Source of the DNA: Massilicoli timonensis
Lineage (GTDB): Bacteria > Bacillota_I > Bacilli_A > Erysipelotrichales > Erysipelotrichaceae
Direction: 5' to 3'
NCBI RefSeq assembly: GCF_900199515.1
Contig: NZ_LT963434.1
Location: 204,057 to 236,056 of the forward strand
Length of the DNA stretch: 32,000 nucleotides
Positions within the stretch are counted from its first letter, which is position 1. Every line of letters begins with the position of its first letter. Of the stretch, positions 8,473-10,674 are shown one piece after another. A program made the position numbers and the translations under genes. The notes beneath the pieces were generated by a model. That model ran no database searches, had not been told where the DNA came from, and worked only from the letters and a program-made list of their open reading frames with translations.

Positions 8473-9084
8473 ATGGATTTTATGGATGTATCGAAAAAAC
8501 GGGTAACGGTGCGTAAGTTTGCACAGGTTCCGGTAGAAGATGAAAAAATACAGAAGATATTAGAAGCCGGGCGGTGGTCGCCTACGGCGGTTAATGGGCA
8601 GCCTCAGAGAATCCTTGTGTTGAATACACTGGAAAACTTGGCAAAGGTTCGGGAATTCTGTTCTTTTGGTTACGACAAAAAGTATGTGGAGTTGGCAGAG
8701 GAATGTGAGGACAAAAGCCACGGAAAACTTAATTTTTACTACGGTGCGCCGCTTGTCTTGTTTGTGGCATATGATAAGGATGCCTGTTGGACGCATCCGC
8801 AAAGCGGAAAAAGCAGTGGAGAAACAGATGCCACAATCGTTGCCACACACATGATGCTGGAAGCTGCAAGTCTCGATCTTGGCAGCGTCTGGATCAGCTA
8901 TTTTGACGAGGAAAAGGCAAGGAGTCTTTTGAAATTGCCGGAAAACTGGCAGCCGGTATGTATGCTTTATATCGGCTATCCTGCAGAAGATTTTGTGCCA
9001 AATACAAAACTTGGCTGTCATAGAAAGCCGTTGAATGAAACCTGTTTTTATAATGCCGTCCCAGCGGGAAAGGAGGAAATATGA
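8473..9084 (+). CDS. Nitroreductase family protein
   Basis: MDFMDVSKKRVTVRKF...WSPTAVNGQPQRILV is typical of the NfnB/NfsA-like fold. The start is ambiguous among GTG 8464, ATG 8473 and ATG 8482. Confidence 0.85.
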   Translation: MDFMDVSKKRVTVRKFAQVPVEDEKIQKILEAGRWSPTAVNGQPQRILVLNTLENLAKVREFCSFGYDKKYVELAEECEDKSHGKLNFYYGAPLVLFVAYDKDACWTHPQSGKSSGETDATIVATHMMLEAASLDLGSVWISYFDEEKARSLLKLPENWQPVCMLYIGYPAEDFVPNTKLGCHRKPLNETCFYNAVPAGKEEI

Positions 9085-9860
9085 ACCAGCAGGAACGAAG
9101 GATTTTTCTCATAAGGGAAATGCTTTCCGAACAGCCTCGGTATGCCGATATAGAAATACCGGAAAATGAGCAGGAGCAGAAAAGGCTGCTCCGTTCCCTT
9201 TTTAATATCCGTATGCCGAGACATACCAACAGTGAATTTCTTGCGGTACAGGATGCTTACCTCCAAGCGGAAACGGCGGAGAAAGGCGTTACCGATATTT
9301 CTGCTCTTACTCCTGTGGCAGAAGGAATCTATCTTTGGCAGGGCGACATTACTACATTGCGCTGTGATGCTATTGTCAATGCGGCCAATTCCCAGATGCT
9401 CGGCTGTTTCTGCCCCTGTCATGGCTGTATTGACAATGCCATCCATACCTTTGCAGGGGTTCAGCTCCGGGAAACCTGTGCCGCGCTGATGAAAGAGCAA
9501 GGCTATGAAGAAGAAACCGGAAAAGCAAAAATTACACCTGCGTATAACCTGCCAAGCAAATATGTTCTGCATACGGTCGGCCCCATCGTCAGCGGCAGGC
9601 TTACAAAGAAGGATGAAAAACTGCTTGCGTCCTGCTATCACTCCTGCATGGAGTTGGCGGAAGAAAATGGGATAACAAGTCTTGCGTTCTGCTGTATCTC
9701 TACGGGAGAATTTCACTTTCCGAATGATAAGGCGGCGGAGATCGCCGTACAGACGGTAAAGCAATATAAAGAAAAAACAAAAAGCAACATGGAGGTAATC
9801 TTCAATGTTTTCAAAGATATGGACTACAAAATCTACCGAAAATTACTCGTCACAGATTGA
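9081..9860 (+). CDS. Macrodomain protein-ADP-ribose hydrolase (sirtuin-linked, Cys-cluster type)
   Basis: The macro core reads [35 protein letters not shown]...HTVGP...FCCISTGEF. It has the N-terminal helical extension typical of SirTM-associated macrodomains. The ATG overlaps the nitroreductase stop (ATGA). Confidence 0.9.
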   Translation: [259 protein letters not shown]

Positions 9861-10674
9861 AAAGCTGAAAAAAGAATTTGAAGCGGCTGAAACCATTGTG
9901 ATCGGAGCCGGGGCGGGACTTTCCACTTCCGCAGGCTTTGTATATGACGGCGAGCGGTTTCGGCAATACTTTTCCGATTTTGAAGAAAAATACGGATTCC
10001 ACGATATGTATTCCGGCGGTTTTTATCCTTACAATACGTTAGAAGAACATTGGGCGTATTGGAGCCGGTATATTTACATCAACCGCTATATGGATGCTCC
10101 GAAGCCTGTTTACAGTGAACTGTTTGAGCTTGTCAAAGAGAAAGATTACTTTATTCTTACAACGAATGTGGATCATTGCTTTCAGAAAGCGGGATTTGAC
10201 AAAAAGCGATTGTTTTATACACAGGGGGATTATGGACTGTTCCAATGCAGTGAGCCATGCTGCAATGAAACTTTTGAAAACGAAGATATCATGCGGCAGA
10301 TGGTGGAGCGGCAGAAAGATATGAGGATTCCTTCGGAGCTTTTGCCGGTCTGCCCCCATTGTGGGAAACCGCTTACCATGAATCTGCGTTCAGACAACCG
10401 GTTTGTGGAGGACGAGGGCTGGCACCGTGCGGCAGAGAGATATAATAATTTTCTTCGCACACGGAAAAATCAGAGAATTTTGTTTTTGGAGCTTGGAGTT
10501 GGATACAATACGCCCGTTATCATTAAATATCCTTTTTGGCAGATGACAGCGAAAAACCGTAATGCTACTTATGTCTGTATCAATTATGGTGAAGCGGTGT
10601 GCCCGCAGGAAATTAAGAAACAGTCTATTTGTATTGACAGTGATATTGGAAAAGTAATTGAGTCTATCTTATGA
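9805..10674 (+). CDS. SIR2-family protein, class M (SirTM-like, putative ADP-ribosyltransferase)
   Basis: Rossmann GAGAGLSTSAG, TTNVDHCF, QGDYGLFQCS, and a zinc ribbon (CSEPCC...CPHCGK) are present. A GGAGG SD (9791-9795) lies 9 nt before the ATG. The gene overlaps the macro gene by 56 nt. Confidence 0.85.
   Translation: MFSKIWTTKSTENYSSQIEKLKKEFEAAETIVIGAGAGLSTSAGFVYDGERFRQYFSDFEEKYGFHDMYSGGFYPYNTLEEHWAYWSRYIYINRYMDAPKPVYSELFELVKEKDYFILTTNVDHCFQKAGFDKKRLFYTQGDYGLFQCSEPCCNETFENEDIMRQMVERQKDMRIPSELLPVCPHCGKPLTMNLRSDNRFVEDEGWHRAAERYNNFLRTRKNQRILFLELGVGYNTPVIIKYPFWQMTAKNRNATYVCINYGEAVCPQEIKKQSICIDSDIGKVIESIL

Follow-up and report, generated by a model that had tools for sequence, protein, structure and literature searches.

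Which protein does a sirtuin/macrodomain pair modify when no GcvH-L is encoded beside it? This question is raised by a stretch of 32,000 nucleotides from Massilicoli timonensis (contig NZ_LT963434.1, positions 204,057 to 236,056), called the window in the following, which carries overlapping genes for a Zn-Macro macrodomain and a class-M sirtuin (SirTM). The substrates of SirTM/Zn-Macro pairs without GcvH-L are explicitly described as an open question (PMC11490716). In the window, the pair ends an operon that also encodes an ACGX-repeat peptide with its radical SAM maturase, and its context is probably that of a redox-stress regulon. By analogy with the characterised system, the two enzymes would most likely switch a redox-stress pathway by attaching and removing ADP-ribose; this is our preferred reading, for which we see the case as almost evenly balanced.

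Identity of the gene pair

The pair and its overlap are located as follows.

9081..9860, + strand: Zn-Macro, predicted protein-ADP-ribose hydrolase, 259 aa (NF003163, Pfam Macro and PDB matches)
9805..10674, + strand: SirTM (class-M sirtuin), predicted NAD+-dependent protein mono-ADP-ribosyltransferase, 289 aa (phmmer against the PDB, catalytic residues)
9805..9860, + strand: 56 nt shared out of frame by the Macro and SirTM genes (direct reading of the sequence)

An initial annotation of the window had proposed that the Macro gene, whose ATG overlaps the stop of a nitroreductase gene, is translationally coupled to it, and that the SirTM gene overlaps it by 56 nt behind a good Shine-Dalgarno sequence. 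Both features can be read in the sequence. The Macro ATG (9081-9083) and the nitroreductase TGA (9082-9084) share bases as ATGA, with GGAGG at 9072-9076, and the SirTM ATG at 9805, preceded by GGAGG at 9791-9795, falls 56 nt within the Macro open reading frame. An overlap of 47-86 nt was present in 69 of 70 related Macro/SirTM pairs, with lengths of 56 nt (31/70) and 50 nt (19/70) recurring. Because the alignment with SpySirTM begins at residue 6 (WTTK...), the N-terminus of SirTM, and with it the upstream start, is real. The coupling to the nitroreductase is likewise seen at the junction, but in relatives this gene is just one among several interchangeable genes upstream of Macro.

The Macro product scored 370.1 bits against NF003163, the curated equivalog 'protein-ADP-ribose hydrolase' (cut-off 272), and matched Pfam Macro at 2e-39. 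In the PDB it matched MorMacro (8RSI, 2.6e-84), SauMacro (5KIV, 8.4e-74), SpyMacro (3.1e-58) and 8RSN (3.3e-43). The alignment with MorMacro spans the protein from end to end (residues 1-257 on MorMacro 3-260), so that the N-terminal three-helix extension is predicted to be covered. A cysteine cluster next to the catalytic loop, GCFCPCHGC, had been singled out before. It is present (C109, C111, C113, H114 and C116 in a MAFFT alignment) and is not novel, since it consists of the published Cx(4)HxC zinc loop plus two non-conserved cysteines. This loop defines the Zn-Macros, in which it replaces the glycine-rich catalytic loop (PMC11490716), and is formed here by C109-FCPC-H114-G-C116. The three zinc-ligand positions were invariant in 81 of 81 macrodomains of the clade, whereas C113 was found in 47 and C111 in 22, and by alignment these two are lineage-variable extra cysteines beside the known zinc site. 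Macro also has NAAN at 100-103 and the Dx3H dyad as D118-NAI-H122. The earlier assignment to the zinc-type, sirtuin-linked macrodomains thus stands on both the NF003163 score and the invariant ligands. Zn-Macros cleave ADP-ribose from Asp/Glu and from Cys (PMC11490716).

For the SirTM product, phmmer returned only two PDB matches at E < 0.01, SpySirTM (5A3A; 2e-72, residues 6-286) and the fungal Macro-SirTM fusion Foc1Mfs1 (8RSN; 7.6e-23). All four catalytic residues are kept: N121, D123, Q140 and R195 correspond to Spy Asn118, Asp120, Gln137 and Arg192 once a 10-residue offset of the PDB chain is applied. T139-Q140-G141 aligns to the Spy ...IQGEYG... motif, with QG in place of the deacylase HG. 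In SirTMs, the 'QG-R' catalytic trio is known to replace the HG of deacylases, and residue roles have been assigned (PMC4518038, PMC8120803). Q140, G141, N121 and R195 were invariant in a nine-sequence SirTM alignment (A2), the same that was used for the locus search. The class-M sirtuins are further marked by linkage to a Zn-type macrodomain, which is found here in the adjoining, overlapping genes.

These observations bear on the possibility that the protein is an ordinary sirtuin deacylase and that the macrodomain clears its O-acyl-ADP-ribose product. There is a weak similarity to Sir2/CobB, and RefSeq names members of this family, including the Roseburia and Enterococcus casseliflavus records, 'NAD-dependent deacetylase/deacylase'. 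However, Pfam SIR2 reached only 22 bits (cut-off 24), and the CobB-type NCBIfam deacylase models, whose cut-offs are at least 221, did not exceed about 33 bits, so that the deacylase models stayed far under their cut-offs. Gln140 stands where a deacylase has its catalytic His; in SpySirTM the Gln-to-His change destroys activity, and SirTMs were found to be without deacetylase, desuccinylase or delipoylase activity (PMC4518038). We therefore regard a deacylase as very improbable, and the public name as probably wrong because Gln replaces the catalytic His. The SirTM-like identity proposed initially is borne out by classification against these models, by SpySirTM as nearest structure and by the four catalytic residues. 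That the two products are a writer and an eraser of protein mono-ADP-ribosylation, of the type described as independent of GcvH-L, is predicted from sequence with what is at the very least near certainty.

The same two domains occur in the fungal fusion Mfs1 (8RSN), as one polypeptide there and as separate overlapping genes here. A single polypeptide of 539 aa found among the related sequences (P0131) has SirTM at its N-terminus and Macro at its C-terminus, the domain order opposite to that of fungal Mfs1.

Absence of GcvH-L and LplA2 from the window

Neither GCV_H nor BPL_LplA_LipB was matched by Pfam on the large open reading frames of the window that were submitted, nor in precomputed Pfam results for identical contigs, which were covered with 10-kb flanks. 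When all six frames of the 32-kb window were scanned, neither the lipoyl-lysine motif of GcvH nor GGGxV(F/Y)HD, the motif of LplA, was matched, and the same motifs gave only two matches in 170 related loci, both read as spurious. The statement that the window holds no GcvH or lipoate-ligase gene is hence upheld. What had been concluded from it, that the pair must have a different target, is not deducible from 32 kb. Nor is the absence unusual: pairs without GcvH-L and LplA2 have been described since 2015, when Rack and colleagues reported 'independent operons' of SirTM and Macro in Clostridiaceae and Lachnospiraceae (PMC4518038). Matches on Lactobacillaceae plasmids (about 32% identity) turned out to be a different Sir2 type, associated with TetR and cupin genes, and were of no use as a source of GcvH-L or LplA2 sequences.

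Ariza and colleagues (2024) distinguished three contexts of these enzymes, namely the extended operon, the minimal operon and the fusion (PMC11490716). Zn-Macros of the minimal operons and fusions cannot demodify GcvH-L yet act on Glu/Asp-ADP-ribose, their substrates being called unknown, and modelling gave no confident complex of lone-pair Zn-Macros with GcvH-L (PMC11490716). In SauMacro, the basic patch Arg175/Arg176 binds GcvH-L (PMC11490716); these positions align to S171/G172 in our Macro, where the patch is missing. With MorMacro as its nearest relative and without this patch, Macro fits the GcvH-L-independent group as judged by alignment, in agreement with a target other than GcvH-L. 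Neither the pair nor its independence from GcvH-L is therefore new.

The locus can be compared with both operon types. With the minimal operons of Methanobrevibacter oralis, Enterococcus faecalis and Treponema pedis (PMC4518038, PMC11490716) it shares adjoining genes and the lack of GcvH-L and LplA2, but here the pair forms the last two of seven genes, together with an ACGX peptide, a radical SAM maturase, three oxidoreductases and an HxlR-type regulator. The extended operon of Staphylococcus aureus and Streptococcus pyogenes, consisting of GcvH-L, Zn-Macro, SirTM, LplA2, OYE and LLM, has the same two enzyme families with the same catalytic residues. GcvH-L, LplA2, OYE and LLM are absent from our operon, which has nitroreductases and a quinone oxidoreductase instead. 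Its candidate carrier is a ribosomal Cys/Asp-repeat peptide. The logic of the two would nonetheless be parallel, with a small carrier, a carrier-modifying enzyme, a writer, an eraser and flavin oxidoreductases, and a redox-stress link in both.

A tightly packed operon with an ACGX peptide

The pair is preceded on the + strand by five closely spaced genes, giving the seven-gene order ACGX peptide, maturase, quinone oxidoreductase, two nitroreductases, Macro and SirTM, and a regulator gene diverges from them.

4641..4973, - strand: HxlR-family winged-helix regulator, divergent from the operon (Pfam HxlR 2.9e-32; single Cys, C10)
5169..5180, no strand assigned: 12-bp palindrome AAGTGCGTACTT, candidate operator, between regulator and peptide gene, found once in 32 kb
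5262..5444, + strand: ACGX-repeat precursor acgA, 60 aa (TIGR04341 70.7 bits, cut-off 28; alternative ATG at 5247)
5551..6588, + strand: radical SAM/SPASM maturase acgM (TIGR04340 611 bits, cut-off 400; Pfam Radical_SAM and SPASM)
6585..7547, + strand: medium-chain zinc-type dehydrogenase / quinone oxidoreductase (ADH_N, ADH_zinc_N, ADH_zinc_N_2; 4-nt overlap with the maturase gene)
7573..8454, + strand: 2x[4Fe-4S] ferredoxin-nitroreductase fusion (Pfam Fer4_7/Fer4_9, Nitroreductase 6.4e-21)
8473..9084, + strand: nitroreductase-family flavoprotein (Pfam Nitroreductase 1.8e-31; start as called on identical contigs)

The quinone oxidoreductase matched TIGR02824 (PIG3-type) at 6.6e-46, under the cut-off of that model. 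Scans of the window for promoters and terminators did no better than on shuffled sequence, and Rfam returned no RNA family.

The single cysteine of the regulator, C10 in the motif P-x-C-P-V, was invariant in 97 of 97 linked homologues. YodB, HypR, QorR and other regulators of the HxlR/DUF24 type use a Cys near the N-terminus to detect quinones, diamide or hypochlorite, and nitroreductases and quinone reductases are under their control. By likeness to these relatives, C10 may be a redox sensor as well. The palindrome was widespread among the relatives: related loci totalling 1.93 Mb contained AAGT[AG]CG[CT]ACTT 62 times, where by our own estimate roughly one occurrence would be expected. Counting the window, 61 of 161 related loci had it, never more than twice in one, and its core 10-mer lay in 75 of 104 regions upstream of the regulator. 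Two minimal loci, L050 and L068, have it immediately between their HxlR and Macro genes, and a Roseburia plasmid carries it too. Judged by its sequence and position, the HxlR-type regulator probably uses AAGTGCGTACTT as its operator.

A TIGR04340 maturase beside a TIGR04341 peptide is what identifies an ACGX system (acgM/acgA in RefSeq), and both models are passed well here; distant ACGX systems lack the SirTM/Macro pair. The repeat unit of the peptide is A-C-G-x-A-C-G-x-x-D-K-P, that is C-x3-C-x3-D. Across 78 unique ACGX peptides, 358 of the 374 residues that lie four positions after a Cys were either Cys (185) or Asp (173), and the leader was MALSNLFGWN, with MSEMLNRV in a minority. The C-x3-D spacing resembles the Cys-X3-Asp thioether motif of PapB/freyrasin; the PapB model reached only 59 bits (cut-off 340). 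The CxxxCxxC of the maturase starts at residue 15, presumably too early for a recognition domain to precede it. Neither a protease nor an exporter gene was found in the operon by Pfam and reading of the open reading frames. Together, these two features suggest that the ACGX product is intracellular. We found no publication on the ACGX system in the literature that was searched.

Distribution of the pair and its partners

The gene neighbourhood was surveyed from two sides. Using the SirTM alignment as query and one genome per species, we collected 80 loci with SirTMs of 65-79% identity. Clostridia, among them Lachnospiraceae and Oscillospiraceae, accounted for most of these, and a small number of bins bore the labels Bacteroidaceae, Treponema or Flexilinea. 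Fifty of the loci had at least 5 kb of upstream sequence and were assessable, with the following counts.

Macro adjacent: 38/50
Divergent upstream HxlR within 6 kb: 33/50
Recurrent flavin or NAD(P)H oxidoreductase: 23/50
ACGX radical SAM gene: 12/50 (19 of all 80)

The most recurrent part is regulator, Macro and SirTM, and L050 and L068 have just these three. The slot between regulator and Macro is filled by interchangeable genes, among them those for nitroreductase, PNPOx+2x[4Fe-4S], quinone oxidoreductase, NAD(P)H-binding, SnoaL-like, DUF1848 and ECF S-component proteins. SirTM sequences were not split by context, with a mean identity of 0.67 both within and between the ACGX-linked and the other group; nearest neighbours shared their context at 0.71 compared with 0.35 expected (p ~0.006).

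The second survey was a metagenome scan with the ACGX radical SAM protein and gave 80 loci of 76-90% identity, 40 of which were assessable with at least 3.5 kb downstream. SirTM or Macro was found in 32 of these 40, both in 20 and neither in eight. The pattern is asymmetric in the way reported for GcvH-L: ACGX loci mostly carry SirTM, while SirTM loci often lack ACGX. To judge from the searched literature, this frequent linkage (32/40 loci) appears to be unreported, and we likewise found no description there of the pair in a regulator-controlled redox cassette, of its recurrent joining by ACGX or of its mobile carriage. In five ACGX cassettes (L095, L096, L103, L123 and L169), SirTM directly follows the flavoenzyme and no Macro gene could be detected, and in three loci (L134, L154 and L183) the gene order is SirTM, then Macro.

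Two annotated RefSeq plasmids carry the SirTM/Macro pair. That of Roseburia sp. 831b has a helix-turn-helix regulator followed by acgA, acgM, a nitroreductase, a 4Fe-4S protein, the protein-ADP-ribose hydrolase, Sir2 and DUF1848, and that of Enterococcus casseliflavus has Rrf2 followed by SDR, Macro, SirTM, PNPOx and NUDIX. In the latter (L187, 7334-7912), a NUDIX hydrolase and a PNPOx-family protein thus lie behind the Macro-SirTM pair, and the NUDIX enzyme may process released ADP-ribose. The tie to redox genes, seen on the Enterococcus plasmid as well, persists among more distant SirTMs. One of 52% identity lies in a locus of HxlR, SnoaL, PNPOx-Fer4, Macro and SirTM with a relaxase on the same contig, another of 44% in the order nitroreductase, SirTM, Macro, and one of 48% is solitary. 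The SirTM/Macro pair is missing from the more distant ACGX systems of Clostridium estertheticum and Methanosphaera, in which a flavin reductase or zinc-type dehydrogenase is nevertheless retained.

Candidate targets of the pair

How could the parts work together? Thiol-reactive or oxidative stress would hit the invariant Cys of the regulator, and the operon would be derepressed. With NAD+ as donor, SirTM would then mono-ADP-ribosylate one of the redox-pathway components at Asp/Glu (or Cys), and removal of the mark by Zn-Macro would release the activity, in parallel to the GcvH-L/LplA2/OYE/LLM system. The mechanism rests on genomic context and on analogy, which weighs against it from the outset.

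The component in question may be encoded in the operon itself, a possibility to which we give nearly the same credence as to its opposite. The sole characterised system has both its substrate and the enzyme that modifies this substrate in the operon (PMC4518038), and the mobility of the cassette favours a self-contained module. The initial annotation had named the adjacent flavoenzymes and the Asp- and Cys-rich peptide as candidates; both gained comparative support from the surveys.

Among single candidates, the ACGX peptide leads, although taken alone it is still a doubtful one and no more than about as likely as a target outside the operon. Its repeats supply both invariant Asp and invariant Cys, matching the range of bonds that Zn-Macros cleave (PMC11490716). 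Peptide and maturase would then be the counterparts of GcvH-L and LplA2, and the flavoenzymes those of OYE and LLM. The more specific version, in which the peptide would be ADP-ribosylated on the invariant Asp or on Cys only after maturation and be demodified by Zn-Macro, is a shade more doubtful again.

The flavoenzymes form the other group of candidates in the operon. ADP-ribosylation might switch off one of them, be it a nitroreductase, the quinone oxidoreductase or the PNPOx-Fer4 protein, in the way that DraT/DraG act on nitrogenase reductase. Translation of Macro is coupled to that of the nitroreductase, the 23 loci listed above, the 44-52%-identical relatives and Enterococcus all have a flavin or NAD(P)H oxidoreductase beside the pair, and the published operon contains OYE and LLM (PMC4518038). 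On the other hand, these flavoenzymes are of unrelated folds and interchangeable, whereas SirTM stays 65-79% identical, and some loci (L050, L068) have none. We consider a flavoenzyme target unlikely, and count it within our estimate for an operon-encoded target.

Several findings weigh against a target in the operon or against the switch as drawn above. The ACGX cassette is absent from 38 of the 50 assessable SirTM loci, and the lack of a split by context among the SirTMs speaks for one target shared by all loci. Some ACGX systems do without the pair (8/40 loci, Clostridium estertheticum, Methanosphaera). The 80% figure of the ACGX survey is biased upward, because the sampled radical SAM proteins are all 76-90% identical to that of the window. 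As the genes between regulator and Macro vary, no single flavoenzyme is a constant partner. Finally, the absence of GcvH and LplA holds for the 32-kb window, and a canonical copy may be encoded elsewhere in the genome.

Much of this would be accommodated if the switch were the same but its substrate lay outside the operon. It could be a widely conserved host protein (for instance a canonical lipoyl, GcvH-type or thiol-redox protein) or the regulator itself, with the ACGX and flavoenzyme genes as co-regulated cargo. Regulator, Macro and SirTM recur while the intervening genes vary, and the minimal loci L050 and L068 have the palindrome directly before Macro and no cargo at all. There are no context-specific SirTM clades, the pairs of 65-79% identity extend to the bins labelled Clostridia, Bacteroidaceae, Treponema and Flexilinea, and ACGX systems occur on their own. 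An outside target is at odds with the layout of the characterised system, in which substrate and modifying enzyme are operon-encoded (PMC4518038), and with the self-containment expected of a mobile cassette. There are further difficulties: HxlR is missing from about a third of the loci, with Rrf2 instead in Enterococcus, so that the regulator is not a universal target, and the published modelling gave no confident complex of lone-pair Zn-Macros with GcvH-L (PMC11490716). We hold an outside substrate to be a serious possibility that still falls somewhat on the doubtful side. Any other explanations, even taken together, seem unlikely.

Whether its target proves to be inside the operon or outside, the locus and its about 100 relatives indicate that SirTM pairs of gut anaerobes are usually not alone but in stress-regulator operons with flavin and iron-sulfur oxidoreductases. 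A sizeable fraction of them stands beside an uncharacterised peptide and radical SAM cassette whose layout mirrors GcvH-L/LplA2. The substrate question is thereby narrowed to a short, testable list of candidates that can be purified, and Roseburia sp. 831b with its plasmid offers a cultured, sequenced host for testing them. The orphan ACGX system, in turn, gains a first functional context. Should the peptide be the target, it would be a second, independent case, after lipoyl-GcvH-L, of ADP-ribosylation that needs a prior modification, and the controlled peptide would travel on a mobile cassette common in gut anaerobes. It would also be, to our knowledge, the first ribosomal peptide or peptide-derived redox carrier under reversible ADP-ribosylation.

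The operon lies on a strain-variable island

The whole operon is contained in a segment that differs between strains.

3253..13699, no strand assigned: strain-variable island of about 10.4 kb, holding the whole operon (blastn against the empty-site strain L176)

We regard this segment as an island because only window positions 1-3252 and 13700 onward align to L176, where they are contiguous. Other strains differ at the same site: in L171 it is taken up by a two-component system together with an ABC transporter, L002 has no DUF3800 segment, and in one of the strains compared (L176, L171, L002 and L010) TnpV and Pycsar-like genes (PycTM, guanylate cyclase domains) lie downstream. The island is bordered by a Fic gene on one side and a low-molecular-weight phosphatase gene on the other; no direct repeats and no integrase were found at its junctions. 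The Fic-domain protein (window 2353-3264) has an N-terminal excisionase-type helix-turn-helix and matches the PADLOC candidate defence models PDC-S04 and SoFic.

This setting brings up a further explanation, in which the pair, as cargo of a mobile island, would act against phages or in the manner of a toxin-antitoxin system, with an ADP-ribosyltransferase toxin and a macrodomain antidote as in DarT/DarG. The eraser gene does precede and overlap the writer gene, and both the Fic gene next to the island and the Pycsar-like genes nearby in one strain would suit such a role. PADLOC, however, gave no defence-family match for Macro or SirTM, nor for DUF3800 or the oxidoreductases, and the pair is steadily linked to redox regulators and oxidoreductases, not to defence genes. 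Moreover, there are loci with SirTM only, and a lethal toxin would not tolerate the loss of Macro. A toxin or anti-phage module is thus most improbable.

The exact SirTM protein is indexed in 349 assembly-collection blocks, and the ten contexts displayed (metagenome assemblies, one Logan run and one NCBI metagenome-assembled genome) all show the same operon. Some otherwise near-identical strains have a broken or shortened gene for the radical SAM maturase, for the ferredoxin-nitroreductase or for SirTM (L001 5746-6784, L177 14210-15248, L004 7769-8650, L175 18665-19333 and L179 18464-19201), which could be due to pseudogenisation or to assembly errors. Downstream of a 560-aa gene in L004 (16609-20870), we also noticed a group of Microviridae-like genes (Phage_ORF5, Chlamy_scaf, Phage_F capsid and a replication protein), which suggests an integrated small single-stranded DNA phage.

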